Shown here piece after piece: positions 1-16,461 of a stretch of 33,473 bases of DNA. The notes beneath the pieces were generated by a model. That model saw only the letters and a program-made list of their open reading frames with translations. It ran no database searches and was not told the DNA's origin. Numbering within the stretch: position 1 is the first letter of the stretch; each line of letters starts with the position of its first letter. Source of the DNA: Arcobacter sp. (lineage in GTDB: Bacteria > Campylobacterota > Campylobacteria > Campylobacterales > Arcobacteraceae); contig CBFIGT010000012.1 in NCBI GenBank assembly GCA_965662175.1, positions 1 through 33,473 of the forward strand, in the 5' to 3' direction. A program made the translations under genes and the position numbers.

Positions 1-14
1 TAACTTATATAATA

Positions 15-311: not shown

Positions 312-435
312 TTCACTCAACCAATCCATAATATTTAAATAATATAAACCATTTTTAATCACTTTAATCAGTTCTGGGTTATATTTGTAGGTTTTTGATA
401 ATTTAGCTTAATAATTAGGTTAAAATTGCTACAAT

Positions 436-489
436 TTCTTACAACATTATTACAACAAAATTAATGTTCTTACAACAAGATTACAACAA
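436..489 (+). repeat. Two 23-bp direct repeats, each holding two TTACAACA units (candidate integrase arm-type or regulator sites)
   Basis: TTCTTACAACATTATTACAACAA (436-458) and TTCTTACAACAAGATTACAACAA (467-489); TTACAACA at 439, 450, 470, 481 (spacing 11/20/11). Confidence 0.8.
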
Positions 490-562
490 TAAGGAAAATT
501 ATGATGTATGAGAATCCCCATCAAATCGGACTTATTGGTTTAAATGGAACGCTTTTTGATTT

Positions 563-579
563 TCCTACCAGGCGTGCCA
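563..579 (+). mobile_element. Putative att site: isolated copy of a tRNA 3' end (tRNA-Arg-like), marking the boundary of an integrated element
   Basis: T-CCTAC-CAGGCGT-G-CCA parses as T60 + 5-nt T-stem 3' strand + 7-nt acceptor 3' strand + discriminator + CCA. No 5' half of a tRNA precedes it, and a hairpin AAGTTCGAT-AAT-ATCGGGCTT (586-606) follows. Confidence 0.6.
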
Positions 580-790
580 TCTTCAAAGTTCGATAATATC
601 GGGCTTGTATAGATTTTAAGCTTTTTGTTTAAGGTTTGTAGAAAAACATTTTACTAACCTATTGCTAACCATTATTAAATTTCACCAATCAAAATACACT
701 AGTCATTTTGAAAACCTTTTTACAAATTAGTGTTACGATTTTTTAAATAATTTAAGTAAAAAATTATATTGAAAATTTAATCTATATATT

Positions 791-1036
791 TTAATATCCC
801 ATATCCCATTCTGTATAGTTTTGTGGAATTCCTAGTTTTGAGGTATCTATATTTTCATTTGTTTCTGGGTCTATTACTTTTGATACATTATTTGTGATTA
901 GATTATCAACTGCTTCTTGTATGGATGCATATACTCCTAATGAATCTTCATTAAAAATAGGGTGATATTTTTTATTTTCATCTTGTCCAATGTCAAAAAT
1001 CCCAACATCAGTAGGGTATGATAGTAGTATTCTCAA
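791..1036 (-). CDS. Small acidic hypothetical protein (81 aa)
   Basis: TTG start with AAAGGAA RBS; natural-looking composition; no family recognised. Confidence 0.7.
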   Translation of the reverse strand: MRILLSYPTDVGIFDIGQDENKKYHPIFNEDSLGVYASIQEAVDNLITNNVSKVIDPETNENIDTSKLGIPQNYTEWDMGY

Positions 1037-1155
1037 GATAGTTCCTTTTTTAGATTAATCTTAACAAGCTATCCTTTGGATTTTTTTATATTGAAAAGTT
1101 AGTTTTCTAAATCAAAAAATAGTAAGATAAGAAAATATCTTATAAAAGGAAACTT

Positions 1156-2310: not shown

Positions 2311-2565
2311 ATGAATGTAGAGATATATTATTGCGGAATGTGAAACTATTTACCACAAGCTTCTAGGTTAGAAGAGGAATTAAAAGGTAATTTTCCAAAC
2401 GTAAATGTTAAAAAAGAGGTTGGCCGTGGTGGAACTTTTGAGGTTATTGTTGATGGTGTTCTTCTTTTTGATAAGTTAAGTTTGCCTTTAGATTTTGGGG
2501 GTGGAAGCTCTTTTCCAAAAGAGAATGAAATAACTGAAAAGATAAAAGCATTGAATGGAGTTTAA
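2311..2565 (+). CDS. SelT/SelW/SelH (Rdx family) selenoprotein, 84 aa, Sec at codon 11 (TGA 2341-2343)
   Basis: AGGAAA RBS then MNVEIYYCGM-U-NYLPQASRLEEELKGNFPNVNVKKEVGRGGTFEVIVDGVLLFDK...FPKENEITEKIKALNGV*; CxxU, GxFEVxVDG and FP motifs of the Rdx family, frame open past the TGA. Confidence 0.92.
2360..2374 (+). promoter_or_regulatory. Candidate bacterial SECIS apical hairpin
   Basis: CTTCTA-GGT-TAGAAG; loop begins with GG 22 nt after the in-frame TGA, as in the bacterial SECIS model. Confidence 0.65.
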
Positions 2566-2596: not shown

Positions 2597-2635
2597 AAGG
2601 GTTGTTTCTGTATAAATTTTATACAGTAAACCCTT
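2597..2635. promoter_or_regulatory. Long inverted repeat between the selenoprotein gene and the glucosylglycerate operon (terminator or operator)
   Basis: AAGGGTT..CTGTATAAA-T-TTTATACAG..AACCCTT; perfect 9-bp arms at 2608-2626. Confidence 0.55.
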
Positions 2636-2651: not shown

Positions 2652-2663
2652 TTAAGATATACT
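2652..2663 (+). promoter_or_regulatory. Putative sigma70 -10 box of the operon, 6 nt upstream of the ATG
   Basis: TTAAGA-TATACT (TATACT 2658-2663); no Shine-Dalgarno before ATG 2670. Confidence 0.5.
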
Positions 2664-2669
2664 AAAAGT

Positions 2670-3461
2670 ATGTTACTTAAAAATATAAAAACAAACTATT
2701 TAATTTTCACAGATTTAGATGGCACTCTTTTAGACCACGAAACCTATAAGTTTAATGAAGCTAAAGAAATGCTTGATTATATTAAGCAAAATAATATTCC
2801 GCTTATAATAGTCACTAGCAAAACGAAAGATGAGGTTATAGAGCTACAAAAAAAACTTAAGATTTCATACCCTTTTATTATAGAAAATGGTGCTGGTATT
2901 TTTATTCCTAAAGATGATGATTATGAGATTATTTCATTAGGAAAGAGTTATGAAAGTACACTTGATGCTTTTAGAAAATATGCACTTACTTTCAAAATTA
3001 GAGGTTTTCATGAAATGAGTGATAAAGAGCTTGCTCAACTTACTGGTTTATCACACGATAAAGCAAGACTCGCTAGAAAAAGAACTTTTTCAGAACCTTT
3101 TATTTTGGAAGATGAAGATTTATCTTTAGAGGATTTATTGGATTTAGCTTTAGAAGATGGTTTTGATATTGTAAAAGGTGGAAGGTTTTATCATCTAATA
3201 ACAAAAGGTCAAGATAAAGCAAATGCCATTATTGCTATGAAAGATTATTATGAAAAACTTCATAACAAAACTTATCACACAGTAGCTTTAGGTGATGGGG
3301 AAAATGATATTACTATGTTAGAAAGTGTTCAAGTTCCAATTTTGATTAGAAAACATGATGATACTTTTATAAATTGTGATATTGAAAACCTAATAAAATC
3401 AAAATATATAGGACCTAAAGGTTGGAATGATAGTTTAAAAAAGGTTTTAGATGTTGAATAA
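2670..3461 (+). CDS. gpgP: HAD-IIB phosphatase, mannosyl/glucosyl-3-phosphoglycerate phosphatase family (GpgP/MpgP-like)
   Basis: DLDGTLL, TSKT, PFIIENG, GGRFYH, GDGENDITML, GPKGWN; context next to a GpgS-like gene. Confidence 0.85.
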   Translation: MLLKNIKTNYLIFTDLDGTLLDHETYKFNEAKEMLDYIKQNNIPLIIVTSKTKDEVIELQKKLKISYPFIIENGAGIFIPKDDDYEIISLGKSYESTLDAFRKYALTFKIRGFHEMSDKELAQLTGLSHDKARLARKRTFSEPFILEDEDLSLEDLLDLALEDGFDIVKGGRFYHLITKGQDKANAIIAMKDYYEKLHNKTYHTVALGDGENDITMLESVQVPILIRKHDDTFINCDIENLIKSKYIGPKGWNDSLKKVLDVE

Positions 3462-4758
3462 AGAGGAGTTTGAAAATAGTTTTTTAGAACTTTTGGAAAA
3501 TATCCATCCTAAAAAACTAATACTAAATCAGTGTAAATATCAAAATGATGCTTTTTATATAAAAGATGAATGTTTTTCTCTTCCAAAAAATAAAAAGATT
3601 CATCTTTTTGGTTCAGGAAAAGCTGCTATTTCTATGGCTGAAGCTATTTATGAAATTATGGAAGAGAAGATAAAAAGTGCTGTTCTTGTAACTCCTTATG
3701 ATAATGATTTAAAAAAACAAAACTTAGTTTATGTGAAAAGTACCCATCCAATACCAAGCCAAAAAAGTATTGATGCTTCAAATAGTTTGATTAAAGGATT
3801 AGAGAGTTTAGAAGAAGATGATTTTTTTATATATCTTTTATCAGGTGGAAACTCTAGTCTTGTAGAATTACCTGAAGATGGTATAAGTTTAGAAGATTTT
3901 CAAAATACTACAAAACTTATGTTACAAAACTCTATGCCCATTGAAGCTATTAATTGTGTTAGAAAACATATTTCAAAAGTAAAGGGTGGAAAACTAGCTA
4001 CTTATACAAAAGCAAAGGGTATTGTTTTAACCTTGAGTGATGTCTTAGGAGATGATTTAGAGGCTATTGGTTCAGCTCCTTTATATTTTGATAAGACAAG
4101 TTTTGATGATGCTATATTTTATTTAAAAAAGTTTGATTTATTTGAAAAAATTCCTTTATCTGTACAAAAACATATAAAAAATGGGAAAGATGGAAAAACT
4201 CCTGAAAATCCAAAAAATGAGAACCCAAATATAAAACACTATTTAATTGGCTCAAATGATATTTTATTAAATGAAGCAAAAAAAGTTTTAGAAAAAAGAG
4301 ATTTAAAACCTATTTTAGAAGATTTTAAAATCAATGATGATGTAAATATTGTTTGTGAAAAGTTAATAGATTTTTGTAAAGATAAGAGTTCTGGATGTTT
4401 TATCTTTGGTGGTGAAGCAACTGTAAAAGTTGAGGGAAATGGTAAGGGTGGAAGAAATCAACATTTAGTTCTCTCTTTTTTAAATGCCTATCCAAAAGAT
4501 AAGGATATTATTTTTTTAAGTGGTGCAAGTGATGGAATTGATGGAAATTCAACTGCAAGTGGTGCAATTATTGATAGCAAAACTTTAAAAAAAGTAGATG
4601 AATTAAAACTTGATTTAAAAACTTATATGAATAATTTTGATTCAAATAGTTTTTTTGAAAAATTAAATCAACTTTTAATTCCAGGACCAACACATAACAA
4701 TATGTTAGATATTGTAATTATATATATAAATTCAAATAAAGGAGAAAAGAATGTCTGA
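3451..4758 (+). CDS. Glycerate kinase, MOFRL / class II family (glycerate 2-kinase)
   Basis: GSGKAA, HPIP, LSGGNSSL, RKHISKVKGG, SDVLGD, GGEATV, GGRNQ, SDGIDG. Confidence 0.9.
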   Translation: MLNKEEFENSFLELLENIHPKKLILNQCKYQNDAFYIKDECFSLPKNKKIHLFGSGKAAISMAEAIYEIMEEKIKSAVLVTPYDNDLKKQNLVYVKSTHPIPSQKSIDASNSLIKGLESLEEDDFFIYLLSGGNSSLVELPEDGISLEDFQNTTKLMLQNSMPIEAINCVRKHISKVKGGKLATYTKAKGIVLTLSDVLGDDLEAIGSAPLYFDKTSFDDAIFYLKKFDLFEKIPLSVQKHIKNGKDGKTPENPKNENPNIKHYLIGSNDILLNEAKKVLEKRDLKPILEDFKINDDVNIVCEKLIDFCKDKSSGCFIFGGEATVKVEGNGKGGRNQHLVLSFLNAYPKDKDIIFLSGASDGIDGNSTASGAIIDSKTLKKVDELKLDLKTYMNNFDSNSFFEKLNQLLIPGPTHNNMLDIVIIYINSNKGEKNV

Positions 4759-5962
4759 TTTCTTTCAAAATGGTGTTATAACTACCTTACAAAAGTTAGG
4801 GGATAGAACACTTGAGGATATGGAAAAAGAGCTTGAGAAATTTAGTGAAAGAAGAAGAATGGTTCTTCTTTTGCCAGCTCTTTATTCGGAGTTTGAAACT
4901 CCAGCAATGCATAAGATTATTGAAGAGTTAAAAAGTGTTAAATATTTATACAAAATTATATTAGGACTTGATAGAGCTACAAAAGAGCAGTTTGAAGAGG
5001 TTAAAACTCTTATGTCAGTTTTACCTTGTAAAGTTGATGTCTTATGGAATGATGGCCCAAAAATAAAAGAGCTTTATGCTGAATTAACAAAAGAGGGTTT
5101 TCCCGGACTTGAAACTCCTGGAAAAGGAAGAAATGTTTGGACAATGTTAGGTTATGGATTAGCTGATAAAGATGCCTATGCTTTTGCCTTACATGATTGT
5201 GATATTGTAAATTATAATAGGGAAATTCCAGCACGTCTTTTTTATCCAATAGTTCATCCCGCACTTGATTTTGAGTTTAACAAAGGTTATTACTCAAGAG
5301 TAAACCAAAAACTTCATGGAAGAGCTACAAGATTACTTTATACTCCTTTAATAAACTCACTTAAAAAAGTTTATGGACATAATAGATATTTAGAGTATAT
5401 GGAGAGTTTTAGATATGCTTTATCTGGAGAATTTTCATTTATTAGATCAATGGGAAGAGGAATAGGAATATCACCCACTTGGGGACTTGAAGTTTCAACT
5501 TTAAGTGAGGTATATAAAAACACTTCAAATAGAAGAATTTGTCAAACTCAAATTATGGAGAGCTATGAACACAAACATCAAAATCTAGGAAGTCAAGATA
5601 GCGGTGATGGTATTTATAAAATGGCAAATGATATTGCAAAAACACTTTTTAGGGTTTTAGCTCAAGAGGGAGTTGTTTTCTCCTCTTCATCTTTTAAAAC
5701 ACTTTTAGCTACATATTTTCAAGAAGCACGATTTGAAATCTCTAAATATAGCGCTTTAAGTAAATTAAATGGTTTAGATTATGATAGGGAAAAAGAGATA
5801 CAAGCTGTAAATGCTTTTCAAGAGGCTATTAAAGAAGCAGCTGTTGAGTTTTATGAAGACCCAATGGGAATTCCATCTTTATCATCATGGATTACAGTAC
5901 GTTCTGTTTTACCTGATTTTTCAACAAAATTTATTAAATATGTAAAGGATGATAACCAATGA
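4751..5962 (+). CDS. gpgS: Glucosyl-3-phosphoglycerate synthase-like glycosyltransferase (marine/cyanobacterial GpgS type)
   Basis: MSDFFQNGVITTL N-terminus, GKGRNVW, HDCDI (DxD), KGYYSR, GRATRL, YALSGEF, WGLE, YEHKHQ. Confidence 0.8.
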   Translation: MSDFFQNGVITTLQKLGDRTLEDMEKELEKFSERRRMVLLLPALYSEFETPAMHKIIEELKSVKYLYKIILGLDRATKEQFEEVKTLMSVLPCKVDVLWNDGPKIKELYAELTKEGFPGLETPGKGRNVWTMLGYGLADKDAYAFALHDCDIVNYNREIPARLFYPIVHPALDFEFNKGYYSRVNQKLHGRATRLLYTPLINSLKKVYGHNRYLEYMESFRYALSGEFSFIRSMGRGIGISPTWGLEVSTLSEVYKNTSNRRICQTQIMESYEHKHQNLGSQDSGDGIYKMANDIAKTLFRVLAQEGVVFSSSSFKTLLATYFQEARFEISKYSALSKLNGLDYDREKEIQAVNAFQEAIKEAAVEFYEDPMGIPSLSSWITVRSVLPDFSTKFIKYVKDDNQ

Positions 5963-7713
5963 AAGCCCCAAAACAACTACATATCTCAGATAGCCAACAC
6001 ACTATAAATAAAAGAATAAACCGTTTATACCCAAAAGATATTGCACAAAGAGCTGTTAATGATATTATTGATTTAATCTTTAAATATAAACAAAGAATAA
6101 AATCAAAAGAGTATCACCTAAGTCAAAAAGATATTATTTTGATAACTTATGGTGATCAAGTTTCAAAATATCATGAAGCTTCCCTTGAAACACTAAACAA
6201 CTTTATGGATGAACACTTAAAAGGAGTTATAAACTCAATTCATATTTTACCTTTTTATCCATACTCCTCAGATGATGGTTTTTCTGTTGTAAATTATAAT
6301 GCCGTTGATCCTCATATGGGCTCTTGGAAAGAGATAGAGGCTATTAGTAAAGAGTATAGACTTATGGTAGATGGAGTTATTAATCATATCTCACAATTTT
6401 CTGATTGGTTTAAAGCTTATTTAGCAGGTGACCCATATTTTCAAGATTTTTTCATAGATGTAGACCCTGCAACTGATTTAAGTAAAGTTGTAAGACCACG
6501 AGCTAGCTCACTTTTGAGTGAGTTTATTGATGATGAGGGAAAAATAAGAAATATTTGGACAACTTTTTCAAAAGATCAAGTTGATTTAAACTACAAAAGT
6601 CATAGGGTTTTACGAAATGTTTTAGATGCTTTATTTTATTATATAGAAAAAGGGGCTACTTTAATAAGACTTGATGCCATAGCTTTTATCTGGAAAGAGA
6701 TAGGAACAGAGTGTGTTCATCTTCCTCAAACCCATGAATTAATACAACTAATGCGTGAGGTTTTACATGAAGTTGCACCTGAGGTTATAATTATTACTGA
6801 AACAAATGTTCCTCACCATGAAAATATTTCATACTTTGGAAGTGGTGATGATGAAGCACAGATGGTTTATAACTTTGCCTTACCACCACTTTTATTAAAC
6901 TCAATTTTACACTCAAATACAAAAAAACTAACAGCTTGGGCAAAAACTTTGACTTTGCCAAGTGATAAGGTATGTTTCTTTAATTTTACAGCAAGTCATG
7001 ATGGAATTGGTGTTAGACCTGTAAAAGGTATTTTAAGTGATGAAGAGCTTAATGATATTGTAGAAAGTGTAAAAGCTCATGGAGGTTTGGTTTCTTATAG
7101 AGCAGAAGCTGATGGAACTCAAACACCATATGAATTAAACTGTTCATACATCGATGCACTAAGTCATCCTGATGAGGACCAGTATATTAGAATAAAAAGA
7201 ATGTTAGTAACACAAGCTGCTGTTTTAGCAATGCCTGGAGTTCCAGGTATCTATTTTCACTCATTAGTTGGTTCACAAAATTATCATGATGGTGTAAAAC
7301 ACTCAGGAATAAATAGGACAATAAATAGAGAAAAATATAATATTGATTGGTTAGAAAATGAGCTCTCTACTCAAGGAAGTTTAGCAAAAACTATGTTTGA
7401 TTCATACAAAAGATTGATTTCTATTAGAATAAATGAAGAGGCTTTTAATCCATTTGGTGAGTTTGAATTCTTAGATTTAGATGATAGAATTTTTGCAATT
7501 GACCAGTTTTCTTGCGATAAAGAGTCAAGAATTTTAGCCTTACATAACTTCTCAAATGAAGAAGTTGAATTAACGATTCCTGATAACATTTCCTTACCAC
7601 TTTGTGATATACTCTCTTCAAACTGTATGATGCAACATGGAGATGATTGCGAAGAAACAAATAAAATCAAACTAGAACCTTACCAAATAATGTGGTTAAA
7701 AGGCAAAATTTAA
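5959..7713 (+). CDS. GH13_18 sugar phosphorylase, probably glucosylglycerate phosphorylase
   Basis: LITYGD, HILPFYPYSSDDGF, WTTFSKDQVDLN, RLDA (nucleophile), ITETN (acid/base), ASHDGIG, PYELN. ETN/YELN match glucosylglycerate phosphorylases rather than the EIH/YQVN of sucrose phosphorylases. Confidence 0.85.
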   Translation: MKAPKQLHISDSQHTINKRINRLYPKDIAQRAVNDIIDLIFKYKQRIKSKEYHLSQKDIILITYGDQVSKYHEASLETLNNFMDEHLKGVINSIHILPFYPYSSDDGFSVVNYNAVDPHMGSWKEIEAISKEYRLMVDGVINHISQFSDWFKAYLAGDPYFQDFFIDVDPATDLSKVVRPRASSLLSEFIDDEGKIRNIWTTFSKDQVDLNYKSHRVLRNVLDALFYYIEKGATLIRLDAIAFIWKEIGTECVHLPQTHELIQLMREVLHEVAPEVIIITETNVPHHENISYFGSGDDEAQMVYNFALPPLLLNSILHSNTKKLTAWAKTLTLPSDKVCFFNFTASHDGIGVRPVKGILSDEELNDIVESVKAHGGLVSYRAEADGTQTPYELNCSYIDALSHPDEDQYIRIKRMLVTQAAVLAMPGVPGIYFHSLVGSQNYHDGVKHSGINRTINREKYNIDWLENELSTQGSLAKTMFDSYKRLISIRINEEAFNPFGEFEFLDLDDRIFAIDQFSCDKESRILALHNFSNEEVELTIPDNISLPLCDILSSNCMMQHGDDCEETNKIKLEPYQIMWLKGKI

Positions 7714-7734
7714 AAAAAGAAAAGGATACAAAAA

Positions 7735-8586
7735 ATGAGTACTACAGAAAAACTAATTACAAGTTGTTTATTTCCAGCAGCAGGATATGGAACAAGATTT
7801 TTACCTGCAACAAAAGCAATGCCAAAAGAGATGTTACCAGTTCTTACAAAACCATTAATTCAATATGGTGTTGAAGAGGCTATGGAAGCTGGATGTGATG
7901 TAATGTCTGTAATTACAGGTCGTGGTAAAAGAGCTATTACAGATCATTTTGATATCTCTTATGAGTTAGAGCATCAAATTCAAGGTTCATCTAAAGAGAA
8001 GATGTTAAGTGATATTAGAAATATTATTGAAAAATGTACATTTACTTATACTAGACAAAATGAAATGAAAGGTTTAGGAGATGCAATTTATAAGGGAAAA
8101 GTTTTAGTAGGTGATTCTAATCCTTTTGCTGTAATCCTTGCTGATGACCTTTGTGTAAATCCAAAAGGTGATGGAGTTTTAGCACAAATGGTAAAACTTT
8201 ATAATAAGTATAGATGTTGTATAGTTGCGTGTATGGAAGTACCCAAAGAGGACGTTCATAAGTATGGTGTAATTGAGGGAACTCAAATGGAAGATGGCGT
8301 GTTTATGGTATCAAATATGGTTGAAAAACCTGATAATGATAAAGCACCCTCAAACCTTGCAGTTATAGGACGATATATTTTAACTCCAGATATTTTTGAG
8401 GTAATTAAAAATACAAAACCAGGTAAAAATGGAGAGTTACAAATTACAGATGCCTTATGTACGCAAGCAAAAAATGGAATGGTTTTAGCTTACAAATTCA
8501 AAGGTAAAAGATTTGATTGTGGATCTGTTGATGGATTCGTTGAAGCTACTAACTATTTTTATAATTTAGAGAGTAAAAAGAAGTAA
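7735..8586 (+). CDS. galU: UTP--glucose-1-phosphate uridylyltransferase
   Basis: AAGYGTRFLPATKAMPKEMLP, VEKP, GELQITDA, RFDCGS. Confidence 0.96.
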   Translation: MSTTEKLITSCLFPAAGYGTRFLPATKAMPKEMLPVLTKPLIQYGVEEAMEAGCDVMSVITGRGKRAITDHFDISYELEHQIQGSSKEKMLSDIRNIIEKCTFTYTRQNEMKGLGDAIYKGKVLVGDSNPFAVILADDLCVNPKGDGVLAQMVKLYNKYRCCIVACMEVPKEDVHKYGVIEGTQMEDGVFMVSNMVEKPDNDKAPSNLAVIGRYILTPDIFEVIKNTKPGKNGELQITDALCTQAKNGMVLAYKFKGKRFDCGSVDGFVEATNYFYNLESKKK

Positions 8587-8589
8587 AAA

Positions 8590-10050
8590 ATGAGTACAAA
8601 ATTTAATCTATGTGACTTCATTCTTTTTGGAGGACATGGAGATTTAGCTTTTAGAAAGCTAATGCCTGCACTTTATCATTTATGTAAAGATGAATATATA
8701 AGTGAACAAAGTAGAATAATAACAATCTCAAGAAAAGATATATCAAGAGATGAACATATTGATTTAGTAAAAGAAAAATTAAAAGAGTTTTTAGGTGAAA
8801 ATGAGTTTGAAGAGAGCTCTTTTGAAAAGTTTAAAGAACAACTATTTATGGTTAGAGTTGATTTTTCAGAAAATGGTTCATATGAAGAGTTACAAAAACT
8901 ATTAAATGAGTATCAAGATAGAGAAAGAGTAAATTACTTATCAACTTCTCCTCACTTTTTTGGAGAGATTTGTAAATCTTTACATGAGTGGAGTTTGATA
9001 ACAGCAAAAACAAGAGTAGTACTAGAAAAACCTTTAGGAAGAGATTTAAAATCTTCTCAAGAGATAAATAAAGAGGTTTTAAAATATTTTAATGAAGACC
9101 AAATTTATAGAATTGACCACTATTTAGGTAAAGATACAGTTCAAAATATTATGGCTTTACGTTTTTCAAATAGACTTTTTGTGCCACTTTGGAACTCTAA
9201 TCATATTGACCATGTTCAAATTACAGTTGCTGAAAGTGTTGGAGTTGAAGGACGTTGGGATTATTATAATGAGTATGGTGCTTTAAGAGATATGATTCAA
9301 AATCATCTTATGCAACTACTTTGTTTAATAGCCATGGAACCACCTTGTTCATTGGATGCAAATAGTGTAAGAGATGAAAAAGTAAAAGTTTTACGTTCAA
9401 TTAGAAAAATGAGTGAGGCTGATTTAAAAGATAAAACAGTCAGAGCTCAATATACAAAAGGTTCATCAAATGGTGAGTCTGTTCCTGGTTATATAGATAG
9501 TGAAGATAAAGTAAGTGATACTGAAACCTTTGCAGCAATTAGAGTTGATATTGATAACTGGAGATGGAATGGAGTTCCTTTTTATATAAGAAGTGGTAAA
9601 CGTATGCAAAAAAGAAATTCAGAAATTGTAATACAGTTTAAAACAATTCCACACTCAATTTTTGGTGAAGATGAGAGTTCAATAAATCCAAACAGATTGG
9701 TAATAACACTACAACCAAGAGAGAGTATTGAGTTAAAACTTATGAATAAAGTACCTGGACTTGCTGATGGAATGAAACTTCAACAAGTTGACTTAGAGCT
9801 TAACTCTCAACAAAAAGTTAAAAAACAAGCGAATGCTTATGAAAAATTAATACTTGATGCAATTTGTTCAAATCCAACACTATTTATGAGACTTGATGAG
9901 GTTGAATTAGCTTGGAAATGGGCTGATAGAATAATTGATGGTTGGAAAAACAATGTAACTCCAATGAAAAAATATAGTGCTGGAACTGATGGTCCTAGTG
10001 CTGGGATACAACTTATTGCAATAGATGGAAGAAGCTGGAACGATGAGTAA
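8590..10050 (+). CDS. zwf: Glucose-6-phosphate 1-dehydrogenase
   Basis: GGHGDLAFRK, EKPLG, RIDHYLGK, RDMIQNH, RWNGVPFYIRSGK. Confidence 0.97.
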   Translation: MSTKFNLCDFILFGGHGDLAFRKLMPALYHLCKDEYISEQSRIITISRKDISRDEHIDLVKEKLKEFLGENEFEESSFEKFKEQLFMVRVDFSENGSYEELQKLLNEYQDRERVNYLSTSPHFFGEICKSLHEWSLITAKTRVVLEKPLGRDLKSSQEINKEVLKYFNEDQIYRIDHYLGKDTVQNIMALRFSNRLFVPLWNSNHIDHVQITVAESVGVEGRWDYYNEYGALRDMIQNHLMQLLCLIAMEPPCSLDANSVRDEKVKVLRSIRKMSEADLKDKTVRAQYTKGSSNGESVPGYIDSEDKVSDTETFAAIRVDIDNWRWNGVPFYIRSGKRMQKRNSEIVIQFKTIPHSIFGEDESSINPNRLVITLQPRESIELKLMNKVPGLADGMKLQQVDLELNSQQKVKKQANAYEKLILDAICSNPTLFMRLDEVELAWKWADRIIDGWKNNVTPMKKYSAGTDGPSAGIQLIAIDGRSWNDE

Positions 10051-10738
10051 TATATTTAAAGAGTTTGAGTCAAATACTCAATTAGCAAAAAAACTAGCAA
10101 GTGATATTTCACTAAAACTTAAAAATAGTATTGATGAAAAAGGGATTGCAACTCTTTTATTATCAGGGGGAAATACTCCAAAACTATTTTTACAAGAGCT
10201 TTCAAAAATAGAGATTGATTGGAAAAATGTAAGTGTTGGTTTAGTAGATGAAAGATGGATTGATAGCTCATTAGAGGATAGTAATGCTCATTTATTAAAA
10301 GAAAACTTATTAATAAATAGTGCAAAAGAGGCTAAGTTTATAGGTATGTATTTAGATGGAATTGAAGCAAAAGATGCTGAAAAGAAGTGTTCAGAACTTT
10401 ATAAACAAGAGTTTGAAAATATAGATGTTTTAGTTTTAGGAATGGGAGCTGATGCCCATACCGCATCTTTATTTCCAAATAATGAAAAACTAGATGAAGC
10501 TTTTGATTTAGAAAATAAAAACTTTTGTATAAATATAAATCCAACAACAGCACCATATAGTAGAATGAGTTTAACATTGAGTGCTATTTTAAGTGCTAAA
10601 AATATAATTTTGCATATTGAGGGTGAGAAGAAATTGGAAGTTTATAATGATATTTTAAAATCAGATGATTTTCATAAATATCCTATAAATAGTGTTTTGA
10701 AACAAAATAAAAAAGATATTGAGGTGTATTTCTCATGA
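10043..10738 (+). CDS. pgl: 6-phosphogluconolactonase (start probably ATG 10043, overlapping the zwf stop; ORF track gives 10025)
   Basis: LSGGNTP, VDERW, LGMGADAHTASLFP, RMSLT. Confidence 0.93.
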   Translation: MSNIFKEFESNTQLAKKLASDISLKLKNSIDEKGIATLLLSGGNTPKLFLQELSKIEIDWKNVSVGLVDERWIDSSLEDSNAHLLKENLLINSAKEAKFIGMYLDGIEAKDAEKKCSELYKQEFENIDVLVLGMGADAHTASLFPNNEKLDEAFDLENKNFCININPTTAPYSRMSLTLSAILSAKNIILHIEGEKKLEVYNDILKSDDFHKYPINSVLKQNKKDIEVYFS

Positions 10739-12555
10739 ATAAAATTATAGAAGATGTAACTAATAGAATAATTGAACGTTCAAAAAAAAGTAGAGAAGTC
10801 TATTTAAAAAGAGTTGGCGAGGCAAAAAAAAAGAGTTTAAGTAGAACTGCATTAGCATGTAGTAATTTAGCCCATGCAATAGCTCCCATGGATGAAAAAG
10901 AGAAAGAGTTCTTAAGTAATACAACTTCTTATAATATGGGAATAGTAACAGCTTATAATGATATGCTTTCAGCCCATCAACCATATTCAACTTATCCAAA
11001 CACTCTAAAAAAAGAGCTTTTAAAACATGGCTCAACAGCTCAAGTTGCAGGTGGAGTTCCAGCTATGTGTGATGGTGTTACTCAAGGCCAAAAAGGTATG
11101 GAATTATCACTATTTAGTAGGGATAATATTGCTATGGGAACAGCTGTTTCTCTAAGCCATGATACCTATGATGGGGCTTTTTATTTAGGAGTTTGTGACA
11201 AAATTGTACCAGGTCTTTTAATAGGAGCTTTATCTTTTGGATATTTACCTGCTATTTTTGTACCCTCAGGTCCTATGCCATCAGGTATTTCAAATAAAGA
11301 AAAAGCAAGAGTTAGAGAAGAGTTTGCTAAAGGTTTAGTTGATGAAAAAGCACTTTTAGAAGTTGAAAAAGCATCATATCACTCATGTGGTACTTGTACA
11401 TTTTTTGGAACAGCAAACTCAAATCAAATGCTTCTAGAGATGATGGGATTACAACTTCCAAATAGCTCTTTTGTAAATACAAACACGCCTTTAAGGGAAG
11501 CTTTGACAAAAAAAGCTGCTAAAACCTTAATACAATTATGTGAAAAGAGAGTCTCTTTATCTGATATTGTAAGTGAAAAAAGTTTTGTAAATGCCATAAT
11601 CGGGCTTATGGCAACGGGTGGTTCTACAAATCATACAATTCACTTAATTGCTATGGCAAAAGCTGCAGGTATAGTTTTAACTTGGGAAGATTTTGATGAT
11701 ATTTCAAAAATAACACCTCTTTTATGTAAAATGTATCCAAATGGAAGTGCTGATGTAAATGCCTTTAGGGAAGCAGGTGGGATGAGTGTTGTTATTTCAC
11801 AATTAATTGATGCAGGAATTGTACATAATGATGTACAAACAGTAGTTGGCTTTGGATTAGATAATTTTATAAAAGAGCCTACTTTAGAAAATGAAGATGT
11901 GGTTTTTATAAATGGAGCTACTATTTCTAAAAATAAAGAGGTAGTTGCAGGATTAGAAGCACCATTTTCAAAAGAGGGTGGTTTAAAACTTTTAGTTGGA
12001 AATATGGGTAAAAGTGTTATTAAAACCTCTGCACTTAAAGAAGAGCTTTTATATATAAAAGCACCTGCTATTGTGTTTAATTCTCAAGAAGAGTTACAAA
12101 AAGAGTTTACAAAAGGAAATCTAGAAAAAGATTTTATTGCGGTTGTAAGATACCAAGGTCCAAAATCAAATGGTATGCCAGAGCTTCATAAACTTATGCC
12201 TCCATTAGGAGTATTACAAGAAAAAGGTTTTAAAGTTGCAATCATAACAGATGGTCGTATGTCAGGGGCTTCTGGAAAAGTTGCATCTGCTATTCACCTG
12301 TATCCTGAAGCAATTGAGGGTGGAGTTATATCTAAAATAGAAAATGGTGACCTTATTGAAATGGATATTAAAAATGGTACCCTAAATATTTTACTTGAAG
12401 ATGATGTTTTAGAAAAAAGAGTAGCTAATAAAGTAAATTTAGAAAAAAATAGATATGGCTTAGGAGTTGAACTTTTCTCTACTATTAGAGAAAATGTAAG
12501 TTCAAGTGAAACAGGTGCTACTATTTTTAAACTTCCAGGAGAGGAAAACGCATGA
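10735..12555 (+). CDS. edd: 6-phosphogluconate dehydratase
   Basis: CSNLAH, TAYNDMLSAHQPY, PAMCDGVTQG, CDKIVPG, GTCTFFGTANSNQ, TDGRMSGASG. Confidence 0.97.
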   Translation: MNKIIEDVTNRIIERSKKSREVYLKRVGEAKKKSLSRTALACSNLAHAIAPMDEKEKEFLSNTTSYNMGIVTAYNDMLSAHQPYSTYPNTLKKELLKHGSTAQVAGGVPAMCDGVTQGQKGMELSLFSRDNIAMGTAVSLSHDTYDGAFYLGVCDKIVPGLLIGALSFGYLPAIFVPSGPMPSGISNKEKARVREEFAKGLVDEKALLEVEKASYHSCGTCTFFGTANSNQMLLEMMGLQLPNSSFVNTNTPLREALTKKAAKTLIQLCEKRVSLSDIVSEKSFVNAIIGLMATGGSTNHTIHLIAMAKAAGIVLTWEDFDDISKITPLLCKMYPNGSADVNAFREAGGMSVVISQLIDAGIVHNDVQTVVGFGLDNFIKEPTLENEDVVFINGATISKNKEVVAGLEAPFSKEGGLKLLVGNMGKSVIKTSALKEELLYIKAPAIVFNSQEELQKEFTKGNLEKDFIAVVRYQGPKSNGMPELHKLMPPLGVLQEKGFKVAIITDGRMSGASGKVASAIHLYPEAIEGGVISKIENGDLIEMDIKNGTLNILLEDDVLEKRVANKVNLEKNRYGLGVELFSTIRENVSSSETGATIFKLPGEENA

Positions 12556-13178
12556 ATGGATATGATGTAATGAAAATCTCACCAATAGTTCCTGTAATTG
12601 CTATTGATGATGAAAAAGATGCTCTACCCTTAGCAAAGGCTTTAAGTGATGGTGGAATAAATGTTATGGAAATAACACTAAGAACAGAAGCTGGACTTAA
12701 AGCTATAGAGATTATCTCAAAAGAGTTTCCTTCTATGAATGTTGGGGCTGGAACAGTTTGTAATAATGAAGATTTAATAAAAGCTAAAAATGCAGGTGCA
12801 AAATTTGTATTTTCACCTGGAATTAGTGATGAGCTAATTAAAAGTGCAAAAGAGAATGATATTACTCTTATTCCAGGTGTTGCAACAGCATCTGAGGTTA
12901 TGAAAGCACAAAATAGTGGAATATTTTATTGTAAACTATTTCCAGCAACACTTGCAGGTGGAGTTGATATTTTAAAAGCTTTTCAAGGACCATTTTCAAA
13001 AATGAACTTTTGCCCAACAGGTGGAGTTAATTTAAATAACCTTAATGATTTTTTATCTTTAAAAAATGTTTTATGTGTTGGTGGCACATGGATTGTTCCA
13101 AAAGATGAAATAAAAAAAGGAAATTTTGACATAATTACAACACTTTCTAAAGAAGCCTTAGATAGAATAGTTAAATAA
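12552..13178 (+). CDS. eda: KDPG/KHG aldolase
   Basis: EITLRT, VGAGTV, SPG, KLFPA, FCPTGG. Confidence 0.96.
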   Translation: MNGYDVMKISPIVPVIAIDDEKDALPLAKALSDGGINVMEITLRTEAGLKAIEIISKEFPSMNVGAGTVCNNEDLIKAKNAGAKFVFSPGISDELIKSAKENDITLIPGVATASEVMKAQNSGIFYCKLFPATLAGGVDILKAFQGPFSKMNFCPTGGVNLNNLNDFLSLKNVLCVGGTWIVPKDEIKKGNFDIITTLSKEALDRIVK

Positions 13179-13202
13179 TAAAATTGTTTATAAGGAGTTA
13201 CA

Positions 13203-14837
13203 TTGTCACATATTAGAGCGGGGAAAATAGCACCTAAGGAGATTTTGGAAGATATACCAAAATTAATTAGTAGCTATTATGAAAATAAACCAAATATAGA
13301 GGATGTTAGTCAAAAAGTTAGTTTTGGAACATCAGGGCATAGAGGAACATCTTTAAAAACAAGTTTTAATGAAGATCACATTTTAGCTATTTCTCAAGCT
13401 TTATGTGAATATAGAAAAAGTGTTGGTATTACTGGTACTTTATTTATAGGAATTGATACCCATGCTTTATCAACTCCTGCACAAACAACTGCACTTCAAG
13501 TTTTTGCAGCAAATGAAGTTAAATGTAAAATAGCAAGTAACAATAATTACACTCCAACTCCTGTTGTATCTTTTACAATTTTAGAATCAAATAAAAATAG
13601 TGAGATTTTAAATGATGGTGTAGTGATAACTCCCTCACATAATCCTCCAAGTGATGGTGGTTTTAAATATAATCCACCAAATGGAGGTCCTGCTGATAGT
13701 GATGTTACAACTATTATTGAAAATAGGGCAAATGAGATTTTAGCAAATGGTTTAAAAGACGTTAAATTTATCTCAAAAGAGGAGATAAAAACTTCACCTT
13801 TTATAGAAGAAGAGGATTTTATAACTCCATATGTAAAAGCTTTAACTACAATAATTGATATGAATGCAATAAAAGAGGCTAATCTAAAAATTGGTGTTGA
13901 TCCTATGGGTGGTTCTGGAATTGAAGTTTATAAAACAATCAAAAAAATCTATGGATTAAATATGGAAATAGTAAATGAAAATGTTGACCCAACTTTTTCA
14001 TTTATGACATGTGACCATGATGGAAAGATTAGAATGGACTGTTCATCTTCATATGCTATGGCTTCACTAATTGGATTAAAAGATAAATATGACATAGCTT
14101 TTGCAAATGACCCTGATTTTGATAGACATGGAATTGTAACTCCAAGTGTTGGGCTTATGAATCCAAATCACTACTTATCAGTTGCTATTTGGTATTTATA
14201 CTCAAATAGAGATTGGAGTGATGATTTAGCAATTGGTAAAACTTTAGTATCAAGTTCAATGATTGATAGAGTTGCTAAAATGTTAAATAAAAAACTTTAT
14301 GAAGTTCCTGTTGGATTTAAATGGTTTGTTGATGGACTTTATGCTGGAACTTTAGGTTTTGGTGGTGAAGAGAGTGCAGGGGCTTCTTTTTTAAGATTTG
14401 ATGAAACTGTATGGTCAACTGATAAAGATGGAATTATTTTAAATTTATTAGCAGCTGAAATTACCTCAAAACTAAAAAAAGACCCAGGTGTTTTATATGA
14501 AGAGTTAGAAGATAAGTTTGGAGTTTCATACTATAAAAGAGTAGATGCACCAGCCACTTTTGAACAAAAAGCAAAACTTAAAAACTTAAGTGTTGAAGAT
14601 ATTAAATCAAAAGAGTTAGCAGGTGAGAGTATTGAAAATATTTTTACAAAAGCAGATGGAAATAAGGCAAGTATTGGTGGACTTAAAGTAACTACTCAAA
14701 ATGGATGGTTCGCAGCAAGGCCATCTGGAACTGAAGATATTTATAAAATATATGCAGAGAGTTTTATTGGGCTTGAGCATTTGGAGCTTATTTTAAGTGA
14801 AGCAAAACAGATAGTATTAAAAAGCATAGAAGGATAA
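13203..14837 (+). CDS. pgm: Phosphoglucomutase (alpha-D-glucose phosphate-specific, E. coli Pgm type)
   Basis: TTG start with AAGGAG RBS; FGTSGHRG, TPSHNP, DPDFDR, GEESAG, RPSGTE. Confidence 0.95.
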   Translation: MSHIRAGKIAPKEILEDIPKLISSYYENKPNIEDVSQKVSFGTSGHRGTSLKTSFNEDHILAISQALCEYRKSVGITGTLFIGIDTHALSTPAQTTALQVFAANEVKCKIASNNNYTPTPVVSFTILESNKNSEILNDGVVITPSHNPPSDGGFKYNPPNGGPADSDVTTIIENRANEILANGLKDVKFISKEEIKTSPFIEEEDFITPYVKALTTIIDMNAIKEANLKIGVDPMGGSGIEVYKTIKKIYGLNMEIVNENVDPTFSFMTCDHDGKIRMDCSSSYAMASLIGLKDKYDIAFANDPDFDRHGIVTPSVGLMNPNHYLSVAIWYLYSNRDWSDDLAIGKTLVSSSMIDRVAKMLNKKLYEVPVGFKWFVDGLYAGTLGFGGEESAGASFLRFDETVWSTDKDGIILNLLAAEITSKLKKDPGVLYEELEDKFGVSYYKRVDAPATFEQKAKLKNLSVEDIKSKELAGESIENIFTKADGNKASIGGLKVTTQNGWFAARPSGTEDIYKIYAESFIGLEHLELILSEAKQIVLKSIEG

Positions 14838-14840
14838 AAT

Positions 14841-16052
14841 ATGAATTACAACGCAAACTTTAATCCAAGAATTTCTGATAGTGAAGTTTTTGAAGCTATT
14901 AAAAAAGAGAAACAAACAATTGGTTATTATAACTTACCTTTTCAAGATACAAGTGCTGTTAAAGAGTATGCAAAAACTGTAAAACAGACAAATATTGCAG
15001 TTATTGGTATTGGTGGTAGTACTTTAGGAACTTATGCTATTTATAATTTTTTAACAAGGTCAAGAGACTATTCAAAAAAACTACACTTTTTTGAATCAAC
15101 TGATCCAATTGATATAAATAGTAGAATTGAAAAACTTGATTTAGAAGATACTTTATTTATAGTAATTAGTAAATCAGGTACAACTATTGAGACTATTAGT
15201 GTATTTAAATATCTATGTTCAAAAGTAAAGATTGATAAAGAGAACTGTTTAGTAATTACAGAGTTTGATAGTAAATTAAATGATTTTGCCCTTGCAAATG
15301 ATATTAAAACCTTTGAAGTACCAAAAGATGTTGGTGGAAGATTTTCGGTATTTTCAAATGTTGGTTTAGTTCCATTAGCTATTATTGGAGTTGATGTAGA
15401 TGGATTATTAGATGGTTGTAAAAAATCTTATAAAGAGTATTTTGAACAAGAAGCACTATATAAACAACTTATGGTAAAAGCTAGATTTATGGCTGAATAT
15501 AAGCATAAATTTAATAATAATGTAATCTTTTCATATGCTTCAGAGCTTGAGGGATTTAATAAGTGGTATGTTCAATTATGGGGAGAGAGTTTAGGAAAAA
15601 TAGATAATGACAAAACTCACCAAGGTCTAACTCCAATTGGATTATTAGGGCCTGTTGACCAACATAGCTTTTTGCAGTTGATTATTGAGGGTAAAAGAGA
15701 TAAAACAGTAACATTTATCAAAATTAAAGATTTTGCTGATGATTCTGTTATCCCTGATATAAAATTAAAAGGATTAGAGAGTTTAGATTATATTAATAAC
15801 TTAAAATTCTCAGAACTTATAAATCATCAAGCTGATTCTACTATAAGAGCTGTTGAGGATTTAAAAGATATTCCATGTGATACTATTACAATAGAAAAAG
15901 TTGATGAGTTTAATTTAGCTTATTTAATGTTTTCTTATGAAATATTAACATCAATTGTTGGAAGATTTTTATATATAAATGCTTATGACCAACCAGGTGT
16001 TGAAAGTGGTAAAATTATATTAAAAGAGAAACTTAAAAATAAGATACTTTGA
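14841..16052 (+). CDS. pgi: Glucose-6-phosphate isomerase (short Campylobacterota type)
   Basis: GIGGS, SKSGTT, VGGRFS, QLWGESLGK, DQHSFLQL, DQPGVESGK. Confidence 0.95.
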   Translation: MNYNANFNPRISDSEVFEAIKKEKQTIGYYNLPFQDTSAVKEYAKTVKQTNIAVIGIGGSTLGTYAIYNFLTRSRDYSKKLHFFESTDPIDINSRIEKLDLEDTLFIVISKSGTTIETISVFKYLCSKVKIDKENCLVITEFDSKLNDFALANDIKTFEVPKDVGGRFSVFSNVGLVPLAIIGVDVDGLLDGCKKSYKEYFEQEALYKQLMVKARFMAEYKHKFNNNVIFSYASELEGFNKWYVQLWGESLGKIDNDKTHQGLTPIGLLGPVDQHSFLQLIIEGKRDKTVTFIKIKDFADDSVIPDIKLKGLESLDYINNLKFSELINHQADSTIRAVEDLKDIPCDTITIEKVDEFNLAYLMFSYEILTSIVGRFLYINAYDQPGVESGKIILKEKLKNKIL

Positions 16053-16056
16053 GGAT

Positions 16057-16461
16057 TTAATAATCCTCAATGAATCTTTTGAAAAGTTGAGGAATATCCT
16101 CTTTTGGAAAAGTATCCAAGTTCTCAAAATCAAAATCTTTTAATAGCTCACTCTCAATATTTGTGAGGTTTTTAATATTTTTATACCCCATATCCCAATT
16201 AGGGAAATATCTTTCACTAGCATCTTCTTCTATGAGTTCAATTAAATCTTTATGTCTTTCATCTTTTTGAATTTTATCATACACAAAAAGAACATTCTCT
16301 TTATCTCCCTCAAGACATTGAATAAAAGTTCTCCCTTTAACAATAAGAAGCCCAGAAATATTTCTCTCTTTATTGTTTTTTCTAGATTTCTCTAAAAGCT
16401 CTTCTAACTCTTGATTTGAAAAATCAAAATTTGCTGTACTCATATACAATAATCTATACAT
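16057..16461 (-). CDS. Stand-alone BLUF-domain blue-light sensor
   Basis: LLYMS (Tyr), NN..ISGLL, FIQCLEG (Gln), DERH, FPNWDMG (Trp/Met); GGAGG RBS. Confidence 0.93.
   Translation of the reverse strand: MYRLLYMSTANFDFSNQELEELLEKSRKNNKERNISGLLIVKGRTFIQCLEGDKENVLFVYDKIQKDERHKDLIELIEEDASERYFPNWDMGYKNIKNLTNIESELLKDFDFENLDTFPKEDIPQLFKRFIEDY

Follow-up and report, generated by a model that had tools for sequence, protein, structure and literature searches.

Loci in which the gene for glucosylglycerate phosphorylase (GGaP) lies with gpgS, gpgP and a glycerate kinase gene are known from Meiothermus silvanus, Spirochaeta thermophila, Escherichia coli (YcjM) and Synechococcus PCC 7002 (A2021-A2023), and phosphorolysis has been proposed as a sink for glucosylglycerate there (PMC7178133, PMC10873239). 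The in vivo role of GGaP has been called unconfirmed (PMC7178133), and the parts of these two papers that were examined mention no link to the Entner-Doudoroff (ED) pathway. In Mycobacterium hassiacum, which has GpgS and GgH, glucosylglycerate accumulates under nitrogen deprivation and drops on recovery; its authors doubt that the compound is an important carbon reserve, and its role as a glutamate stand-in and counter-ion is known for cyanobacteria and Dickeya (PMC5381378). Within the Campylobacterota, the Campylobacter glc locus, glcP-pgi2-glk-pgl-zwf-edd-eda, supports growth on glucose (PMC5118423). For Arcobacter anaerophilus IR-1, a run of genes annotated as gpgP, ttuD, gpgS, 'sucrose phosphorylase', gtaB, zwf, pgl, edd, eda and pgi (Acr_02712-02723) was printed in 2015 as raw annotation (PMC4584990, supplementary file 1), where it is left undiscussed; the word 'glycerate' is absent from the main text.

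The window analyzed here, a stretch of 33,473 nt from Arcobacter sp. (contig CBFIGT010000012.1), carries a related set of 11 ORFs, all on the + strand between 2670 and 16052 (Table 1). An earlier note on this DNA had described eleven one-strand genes with overlaps or gaps of at most 24 bp, and the ten junctions, which measure -11, -8, -4, +21, +3, -26, -4, -4, +24 and +3 bp in order, confirm this; the -26 bp zwf/pgl junction becomes -8 if pgl begins at its second ATG. Since the gene order is the same in 6/6 same-genus genomes with gpgS (L031, L129-L133, with gpgP split into two pieces in L133), the arrangement is not due to chance, and the eleven genes likely form one operon. The hairpin at its end sits between pgi and a converging BLUF gene, and is read as a terminator because of this position rather than its score, the terminator scan having found 5 terminator-like sites against 4.8 in shuffles. 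Since the cell probably has a constant need for pgi, internal or basal transcription also is likely. Five sequencing runs labelled wastewater metagenome contain 6-36% of sampled words; contigs assembled from four of the wastewater-labelled runs were short, low-depth and of mixed origin, and three of these four are possibly DNA, not RNA.

Table 1. Features of the predicted operon and its upstream region (positions in the window).
Feature	Coordinates	Strand	Basis
17-bp palindrome TGTATA-N5-TATACA, predicted activator site	2609..2625	.	6/6 aligned upstream regions
-10-like hexamer TATACT	2658..2663	+	32 nt past box, 6 nt before gpgP ATG
gpgP: HAD-IIB glucosyl/mannosyl-3-phosphoglycerate phosphatase	2670..3461	+	TIGR01486, 227 bits vs cut-off 165
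MOFRL/TtuD-type glycerate kinase, 2-phosphoglycerate product predicted	3451..4758	+	PF13660+PF05161 (DUF4147+MOFRL)
gpgS: glucosyl-3-phosphoglycerate synthase, ~400-aa type	4751..5962	+	NF040724, sole match
GH13_18 glucosylglycerate phosphorylase (GGaP), predicted	5959..7713	+	TETN + loop-A Glu392
galU: UDP-glucose pyrophosphorylase	7735..8586	+	TIGR01099 above cut-off
zwf: glucose-6-phosphate dehydrogenase	8590..10050	+	TIGR00871 above cut-off
pgl: 6-phosphogluconolactonase, alternative start 10043	10025..10738	+	TIGR01198 above cut-off
edd: 6-phosphogluconate dehydratase	10735..12555	+	TIGR01196, 927 bits vs cut-off 708
eda: KDPG aldolase	12552..13178	+	TIGR01182 and NF004325 above cut-off
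pgm: phosphoglucomutase, TTG start	13203..14837	+	TIGR01132 above cut-off
pgi: glucose-6-phosphate isomerase, family's housekeeping type	14841..16052	+	NF003016 above cut-off
Hairpin read as bidirectional terminator	16049..16070	.	at operon end

The ED set of zwf, pgl, edd and eda is complete, with open frames and curated NCBIfam cut-offs passed, and neither a glucose permease nor a glucokinase gene was found among the 11 genes or the conserved neighbors of the cluster. The TETN motif of the phosphorylase, at residue 280, corresponds to (T/S)ETN at beta-strand 5, and its loop A has Glu in place of Gln, aligned with the loop-A Glu of E. coli YcjM, to which the protein is 42% identical over 539 aa; (T/S)ETN and the loop-A Glu are the documented signatures of GGaP (EC 2.4.1.352) (PMC7178133). 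Among related phosphorylases, TETN is present in 82/82 and the Glu in all 78 that could be aligned at loop A. The genes for GpgS, GpgP and glycerate kinase all adjoin the phosphorylase gene, and these features together support the prediction that the GH13_18 protein is a GGaP. Identity as a sucrose phosphorylase was rejected, as loop A differs from N(L/V)D(I/L/V)YQ and TIGR03852 gave 234 bits against a cut-off of 334.

GpgS matched NF040724 over its full length with 320.6 bits, short of a curated cut-off of 700 that, judging by the name of the model, is set for methanogen orthologues. A search of the PDB with the single sequence gave no match; a profile matched 7 PDB sequences, each of them either Rubrobacter MpgS or a GpgS-type protein from mycobacteria. 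The predicted structure (pLDDT 95) has the GT-A fold of GpgS, the top fold matches being GpgS with Rubrobacter MpgS also among them. The DxD and acceptor-loop His residues (D149, D151, H274 and H276) are nearly invariant. Donor specificity is unreadable from sequence, and NDP-glucose is favored by context, namely galU and GGaP. PDB matches were 1xvi, 3ztw and 1wzc for GpgP, and 1x3l and 2b8n for the glycerate kinase, which scores below the cut-off of glycerate 2-kinase models. The enzyme identities given in the earlier note thus find support in NCBIfam and Pfam matches, GGaP signatures and GpgS profile matches, with gpgS and GH13 below curated cut-offs.

Upstream of gpgP, both half-sites of the palindromic box, the -10-like hexamer and its 6-nt spacing to the ATG are invariant in 6/6 aligned same-genus regions. 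No Shine-Dalgarno sequence was found ahead of gpgP in the window, and the transcript is predicted to be leaderless, starting at the ATG. A generic promoter scan returned 52 sites, compared to 75 in shuffles, and missed this promoter. The genome contains 15 exact copies of the box where about 1.9 would be expected; every copy is intergenic, and the enrichment is spacer-specific; the box lies 30-32 nt from the hexamer at 10/15 of these sites and at 24/45 sites in relatives. With at most one mismatch, the box was found in 41/73 Campylobacterota gpgP upstream regions (0.25 in shuffles) and in 0/13 in other phyla. Eleven of the 14 other exact copies precede nitrogen-assimilation or nitrogen-control genes, the box being found ahead of amt-glnK, narK, nirB, urtA, nifA and cowN and, with one mismatch, glnA. 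Because the box is shared with nitrogen-scavenging genes, the operon is likely to be part of a regulon for nitrogen starvation, a mode of control that goes beyond the earlier note.

A candidate for the activator acting at the box is an NtrC-like protein of 250 aa (G000:C94:254-1006), the gene for which adjoins glnD. It gave no receiver-domain match and only weak partial AAA+ and Fis-HTH matches, does not qualify as a classical NtrC, and also is encoded in genomes that lack the box ahead of gpgP. We tentatively raise the possibility, to which we give somewhat less than an even chance, that a global nitrogen regulon, so far undescribed, operates in free-living Campylobacterales, with a receiver-less NtrC-derived protein encoded alongside glnD activating sigma-70 promoters from the TGTATA-N5-TATACA box and with the operon as its carbon arm, a glucosylglycerate battery. 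Our literature search found no described nitrogen regulon for Campylobacterota, and NtrC gave no match in the papers checked for it.

We also examined how these genes are distributed. Among 151 Arcobacteraceae genomes, gpgS and GGaP occur in the same 46, in line with the cycle of synthesis and phosphorolysis envisaged in the earlier note, and edd, for which a synteny check with gpgS and GH13_18 had been suggested, not only keeps its place in the same-genus loci but is found in 33/46 genomes with gpgS versus 4/105 without. Conversely, 33/37 edd carriers have gpgS. The association persists within genera (CMH p=2.6e-5, six informative genera, with kin not independent), and among Pfk-less genomes edd is present in 17/18 with gpgS versus 3/67 without. 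As 13/46 gpgS genomes have no edd (12 of these 13 encode Pfk), ED is an optional partner of gpgS. Glucokinase, Pfk and glycogen synthase are all missing from 17 genomes with gpgS and edd, and the pathway there probably is fed from inside. In four closed same-genus genomes, FBPase and nifH are present, and PF02685 glucokinase, ROK, GluP, PTS EIIC, gluconokinase, 6-phosphogluconate dehydrogenase (6PGD) and GT20 were not found. Co-occurrence and these missing sugar-entry genes support ED as the exit for the glucosyl half, as the earlier note had proposed. Among five family genomes with edd apart from gpgS, the three examined have it beside glucokinase or polyol/sugar genes; elsewhere in the phylum, edd is present in 69/401 genomes. 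ED has become joined to the gpgS/GGaP core with more than one Edd lineage and in more than one gene order, the lineages being taken from a quick version of the tree. A pgm of this type is found in 11/15 genomes with gpgS versus 4/25 without and is not obligatory. All 5 gpgS-less genomes examined have pgi, with galU directly upstream in 4; the two genes look like an old housekeeping pair to which the other genes of the unit were added. Ectoine synthase is only loosely tied to gpgS (32/46 genomes with versus 35/105 without), and no gene for it turned up in the genome that carries the window, which is 94% complete.

The genome that carries the window departs from its closed relatives. We had expected it to encode no Pfk or glucokinase, and both genes were found, together with glycogen synthase, a second edd/eda/pgi and zwf; ED may therefore also serve glycogen or polyols here, and the 'self-contained' cycle of the earlier note does not hold for this genome. 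A PQQ-type sugar dehydrogenase gene upstream (1156-2247) was considered as a gluconate feed and set aside, given that it is absent upstream in same-genus loci and gluconokinase was not found. PfkB matches of another genome, G017, were considered as fructokinase; those checked are HldE and ThiD.

We consider it probable that these genes constitute one nitrogen-starvation-induced operon that makes glucosylglycerate and later splits it with phosphate, ED burning the glucose half and the kinase returning the glycerate half. Going by enzyme families, Pgi, Pgm and GalU would turn gluconeogenic fructose-6-phosphate into UDP-glucose, which GpgS would join to 3-phosphoglycerate, GpgP then taking off the phosphate. 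The resulting nitrogen-free anion could replace glutamate as a potassium counter-ion and store surplus carbon. GGaP would release glucose-1-phosphate and glycerate, the former passing through Pgm, Zwf, Pgl, Edd and Eda to pyruvate, triose phosphate and NAD(P)H, and the latter being phosphorylated to 2-phosphoglycerate, so that each glucosylglycerate would yield three pyruvate equivalents plus reductant for renewed glutamate synthesis. ED would be needed because the closed relatives have no detectable Pfk or 6PGD. Transcription would start from the sigma-70 promoter at the gpgP ATG, with activation through the box suggested by its geometry and the protein encoded beside glnD as candidate activator. 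A single promoter for synthesis and breakdown would require post-transcriptional control, as the cycle otherwise would be futile.

Other readings of the same genes were weighed. ED might mainly be a cyclic NADPH generator for nitrate, nitrite and ammonium assimilation that shares the nitrogen promoter and draws little flux from the glucosylglycerate genes. A cyclic ED pathway is known in Pfk-less bacteria (PMC5118423), 6PGD is absent from 5/5 genomes checked, G015 and G081 have ED without gpgS, Pfk or glucokinase, and the box is common to nirB and nitrate reductase genes. We nevertheless regard this reading as unlikely, since 64/67 Pfk-less genomes without gpgS have no edd, the reverse of the pattern in those with gpgS, and edd and gpgS are missing together from G098 and four g20 genomes. 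Catabolism of external glucosylglycerate or sugars, for example from cyanobacteria, with synthesis secondary, is highly improbable. No transporter was found among the conserved cluster neighbors, none of the 151 genomes has the phosphorylase without gpgS, and G054, a closed genome with the operon, gave only SBP_bac_1 matches of low score, although a UgpB-like carbohydrate ABC system is present in 3/4 closed relatives, a TRAP binding-protein gene of G017 has the box ahead of it, and the ED genes of G006, G027 and G085 have polyol or glycerol uptake genes as neighbors. Named carriers also do not use the sugars tested: A. anaerophilus IR-1, which carries the cluster, showed no growth with glucose, fructose or sucrose (PMC4584990), and A. 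nitrofigilis, which encodes P0014, is described as neither oxidizing nor fermenting carbohydrates.

The linkage might instead be largely historical, two independent modules having been inserted at an ancestral galU-pgi site, with ED serving glycogen breakdown. In favor of this, galU is directly upstream of pgi in 4 of the 5 gpgS-less genomes, as noted above; glycogen synthase is encoded in this genome and 38 others (39, down from 44 after five weak partial PF08323 matches were dropped), and ED lies beside glucokinase in G130. This account is hard to reconcile with the 17 genomes that combine gpgS and edd without glycogen synthase, glucokinase or Pfk, and with Sulfurimonas-type loci, where ED lies upstream in another gene order and Edd belongs to a different lineage; we see very little chance that it is correct. 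It is also very unlikely that the synthase product is mannosylglycerate or the precursor of a larger glycoside rather than free glucosylglycerate. The family models matched by GpgP are named for mannosyl-3-phosphoglycerate, and Rubrobacter MpgS is among the GpgS matches noted above, but MPG-synthase models gave no match, galU is linked in 53/67 loci, the partner phosphorylase has strict GGaP signatures, and no further glycosyltransferase was found among the conserved neighbors.

The operon makes the in vivo purpose of GGaP testable in cultured, harmless strains, since it unites synthesis, phosphorolysis and the sole evident exit for hexose phosphate, and routes that would compete are missing from closed relatives. 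It suggests why ED genes occur in arcobacters that show no growth on sugars, and cautions against reading ED genes or 'sucrose phosphorylase' labels in such genomes as signs of sugar use. If the battery exists, it would explain why sugar-blind Arcobacteraceae without glucose import or phosphorylation keep a full ED pathway. Glucosylglycerate also becomes a likely solute of Campylobacterota that are abundant in marine and brackish settings, and the promoter box provides a handle on nitrogen control in the phylum. Our literature search found no paper pairing glucosylglycerate or glucosyl-3-phosphoglycerate with Arcobacter, and glucosylglycerate is not named in the Campylobacterota papers among the matches listed. 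The earlier note knew of no description in this lineage; the gene list itself is already in print for IR-1.

Compared with the known GGaP loci, the Arcobacter unit has the same four enzyme families adjoining and a phosphorylase with TETN and the loop-A Glu, and adds galU, full ED, pgm, pgi and a nitrogen-regulon box. The IR-1 cluster has the same gene order and differs in having no pgm. The Campylobacter glc locus, from the same phylum, likewise has ED as a bypass of a missing Pfk, but it includes genes for a glucose permease and a glucokinase, neither of which is part of the Arcobacter operon; hexose phosphate would enter the latter as glucose-1-phosphate via Pgm. The M. hassiacum cycle uses a hydrolase instead of a phosphorylase, has no ED operon, and relies on a distant type of GpgS (about 19% identity to the Arcobacter protein). 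In the NtrC regulon of Proteobacteria, 17-bp palindromic sites act at a distance on sigma-54 promoters. The Arcobacter box resembles these sites in being a 17-bp palindrome ahead of glnA, amt-glnK and nitrogen-scavenging genes, but differs in its constant spacing to a -10 hexamer of the sigma-70 type that follows it. Likewise, the candidate regulator shares an NtrC-like AAA+ remnant and Fis-type HTH with NtrC, and differs in its 250-aa length, the lack of a receiver domain and the position of its gene beside glnD.

The eleven genes that the earlier note had read as one tightly packed, single-strand unit were recovered as eleven open frames in the window ORF calls (see table), with junctions ranging from -26 to +24 bp and, at the operon end, a hairpin that is terminator-like in both directions. 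With a G+C content of 27-34% throughout, close to the 27.8% of the genome, the operon does not have the appearance of a recently acquired island. Seven genes (galU, zwf, pgl, edd, eda, pgm and pgi) exceeded NCBIfam cut-offs, gpgP exceeded that of the MPGP family, and the second gene encodes a DUF4147+MOFRL kinase with PDB relatives 1x3l and 2b8n; the closest named relatives carry the labels Arcobacter, Halarcobacter, Malaciobacter and Poseidonibacter. The small SelT/SelW/SelH-family gene nearby probably encodes a selenoprotein (in-frame TGA at the CxxU position; TIGR02174 cut-off exceeded when TGA is read as U) and ends about 45 nt upstream of the nitrogen box described below. No PQQ-type dehydrogenase gene was seen at the corresponding place in same-genus loci, and the BLUF-domain gene is not at this site in same-genus loci L129-L133.

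Coordinates of the operon, its surroundings and related features (G, genome; C, contig; L, extracted locus; G000, the genome containing the window)
Feature	Location	Strand	Remark
Contig-edge region	window 1-1100		no ORF of at least 100 aa; may be mobile-element end or gene remnant
PQQ-type glucose/sorbosone dehydrogenase family gene (PF07995)	window 1156-2247	+	upstream of operon
SelT/SelW/SelH-family gene	window 2311-2565	+
Nitrogen box	window 2609-2625		upstream of gpgP
Operon, gpgP to pgi	window 2670-16052	+	11 genes
Hairpin	window 16049-16070		operon end
Stand-alone BLUF-domain gene	window 16057-16461	-	converges on pgi
NtrC-like candidate regulator gene	G000:C94:254-1006
Candidate regulator gene with glnD	L235:254-3540 (G000:C94)		genes overlap
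cowN	L179, G000:C104:5272
Conserved 77-79-aa ORF	L193:1161-1391, L211:952-1188, L216:944-1174		weak ribbon-helix-helix similarity
Glucokinase, Pfk, glycogen synthase, apparent glucan-processing genes	G000:C89:1-3329, C109, C201

Over 539 residues, the GH13 protein shares 42% identity with E. coli YcjM, a protein annotated as a glucosylglycerate phosphorylase (GGaP). It has both signatures that PMC7178133 names for this specificity, (T/S)ETN and a loop-A Glu; TETN was found in 82/82 related phosphorylase copies. The 403-aa glycosyltransferase matches NF040724 (GpgS) alone, over its full length and below the cut-off, with no Pfam match. A GpgS profile built from 76 homologues matched seven PDB sequences, each a mycobacterial GpgS-type protein or Rubrobacter MpgS, and a structure search with an AlphaFold model (pLDDT 95) ranked GpgS structures top and MpgS lower. 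These matches support the family assignments of the earlier note, gpgS-like and GH13_18 phosphorylase. The sugar donor is not readable from profile or structure matches; we favour UDP-glucose because galU adjoins in 53/67 loci and the phosphorylase is the partner enzyme.

Within the genus, gpgS was present in 6/7 genomes and the 11-gene order was kept in all six, with gpgP split in two pieces in one locus (L133). We surveyed 80 related loci, 67 of them outside Flavobacteriaceae and Psychrobacter. Among these 67, the phosphorylase and the kinase were each found in 66, gpgP in 61 and edd in 24 (17 downstream, 7 upstream). Where a locus extended at least 9 kb in both directions (34 loci), edd was present in 18. 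In a sample of 401 genomes of the phylum, 17 had gpgS, 69 edd and nine both; the two largest families had edd in 56/276 and gpgS in 0/276, and the two genes were not seen linked in the five genomes from outside Arcobacteraceae that had both.

Two elements were invariant in an alignment of six gpgP upstream regions: a 17-bp palindrome, TGTATA-N5-TATACA, and, 6 nt upstream of the gpgP ATG, a -10-like hexamer. The genome has 15 exact copies of this box, all intergenic, versus about 1.9 expected; other spacer lengths gave 0-3 copies, and among 60 permuted palindromes it had the most copies (mean 1.9; 13 and 12 in two others). Eleven of the 14 other copies stand before nitrogen genes (two narK genes, a nitrate-reductase-like pair, a formate/nitrite channel gene, nirB, two amt-PII pairs, urtA, nifA, cowN and an NtrC-like gene joined to glnD), the remaining three before a CheW-tailed protein gene, a porin gene and no called gene; a version with one mismatch precedes glnA and a second nitrate reductase gene. 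Relatives carry 21 (G017), 13 (G054), 7 (G098) and 6 (G056) copies versus 1-3 for the reversed control, and zero in G010; further targets in these relatives are ethanolamine ammonia-lyase, amino-acid ABC transporters and ureidoglycolate lyase. With at most one mismatch, the box lies upstream of gpgP in 41/73 Campylobacterota loci versus 0.25 in shuffles, is weak or absent in many of the loci from outside Arcobacteraceae, and was found in 0/13 loci of other phyla. A spacing of 30-32 nt between the box and a -10 hexamer recurs at 10/15 sites in this genome and 24/45 in relatives (about 1 and 3 at other spacings); the hexamer pattern was picked once the sites had been seen. Lying just upstream of the -35 region, the box would fit an activator. 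At cowN and the NtrC-like gene, the box is at most 30 nt from the start codon and has a -10-like hexamer inside it, an arrangement that would suit repression, not activation. The conserved 77-79-aa ORF lies downstream of an exact box in three same-genus genomes. No description of the box was found in the regulon literature, which was narrowly covered.

The NtrC-like protein (250 aa; a degenerate NtrC-type AAA+ part and a Fis-type HTH, with no receiver domain found) is a candidate global nitrogen regulator that may act at the box. Its gene adjoins glnD in 13/17 loci examined, is itself preceded by the box, at a distance of 26-28 nt, in the four same-genus loci, and was found in 37/40 genomes searched, missing in all three genomes of the genus of box-less G010.

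We consider it fairly probable that the operon is a nitrogen-starvation store-and-recycle system for glucosylglycerate with an Entner-Doudoroff (ED) exit. Nitrogen limitation would switch on the presumably co-transcribed genes, and gluconeogenic carbon would be banked as a nitrogen-free anion, a role reported for cyanobacteria and Dickeya (PMC5381378). On nitrogen return or a drop in salt, phosphorolysis, ED and glycerate kinase would bring all nine carbons back to pyruvate level plus NAD(P)H; the genome carries pyruvate kinase and an enolase-like gene. Rival, less probable readings are that the synthase makes another product, that ED runs cyclically for NADPH, that the catabolic genes serve scavenging, or that the modules are linked by history.

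Among 151 Arcobacteraceae genomes, gpgS and the phosphorylase co-occur in an identical set of 46. The edd gene was above cut-off in 35, with two further copies truncated by contig ends (G110; G055, L047), and 33/37 edd genomes carry gpgS (within-genus test, p=2.6e-5, a value that overstates the association, as related genomes are not independent); judged by position, 24 of these 33 have the two genes linked, five apart and four on different contigs. In four closed same-genus genomes, all with FBPase and nifH, we found no glucokinase, ROK kinase, GluP or PTS EIIC, and no gluconokinase, 6-phosphogluconate dehydrogenase or trehalose/glucosylglycerol synthase. A UgpB-like ABC system is present in three closed relatives. 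Seventeen genomes have gpgS and edd and lack glucokinase, glycogen synthase and Pfk. Pfk is present in 12/13 gpgS genomes lacking edd (the exception is 86% complete), and edd in 3/67 genomes lacking both gpgS and Pfk, a distribution in which nearly every solute maker has some hexose-phosphate exit. Co-occurrence and the missing entry routes thus favour ED as the exit for the glucose moiety, whereas the 13 gpgS genomes without edd, and ED sets apart from gpgS that adjoin polyol, glycerol or glucokinase genes, speak against it as a general rule. Such clusters in L137 (G006), L126 (G027) and L139 (G085) adjoin a polyol ABC transporter, polyol dehydrogenase and fructokinase-like kinase, or glycerol-3-P dehydrogenase and an ABC transporter, making polyol use in Arcobacteraceae possible; in G015 (L125) and G081 (L127), a zwf-pgl-edd-pgi cluster has no nameable ED source, with no gpgS, Pfk or glucokinase found.

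On historical linkage, galU lies directly 5' of pgi in 4/5 gpgS-less genomes; the operon was therefore probably assembled around these two housekeeping genes. Sulfurimonas-type loci, with edd upstream, have their own Edd lineage in a quick tree, which suggests that ED was joined on more than one occasion. Among the best 80 hits, a fast tree places GpgS of Flavobacteriaceae and Psychrobacter within the Campylobacterota sequences, pointing to transfer outward. None of the 13 loci of these two groups has edd; Flavobacteriaceae loci (L036, L078-L082, L086) have the four-gene core and Psychrobacter loci (L065, L067-L070, L076) gpgP-gpgS only, all without the nitrogen box. The claim that the cycle is self-contained did not hold in this genome, which has a glucokinase fragment behind a large gene (its IR-1 counterpart is labelled glucoamylase/phosphorylase-kinase-like), glycogen synthase, Pfk in a cluster taken as glycogen genes by eye rather than by HMM, and a second edd-eda-pgi and zwf adjoining transposases (C123 and C199). 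The second edd-eda-pgi (C123) shares 79-89% identity with the glycerol-linked ED sets found in another genus (G027, G085), and its edd is interrupted by an assembly gap; this second set may reflect transfer or bin contamination. Across the family, glucokinase never occurs without glycogen synthase (20/20), nor glycogen synthase without Pfk (39/39; Pfk total 66). Given this nesting, the three, together with apparent glucan-processing genes, look like one module, likely a glycogen module in supposedly asaccharolytic Arcobacteraceae.

The earlier note knew of no description in this lineage, and we found no paper linking glucosylglycerate to Arcobacter in a search that covered mainly openly available literature. 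The cluster itself is listed for A. anaerophilus IR-1 (Acr_02712-02723) in the PMC4584990 supplement; that paper mentions ED, states that the strain did not grow on glucose, fructose or sucrose, and nowhere uses the word "glycerate". A. nitrofigilis, whose GpgS (P0014) is 88% identical to that of the window, is described in PMC3035288 as a halotolerant diazotroph that does not use carbohydrates. The four-gene core (gpgP, kinase, gpgS and GGaP) is already a known kind. ED in Campylobacter differs in being accompanied, according to PMC5118423, by a permease and glucokinase.
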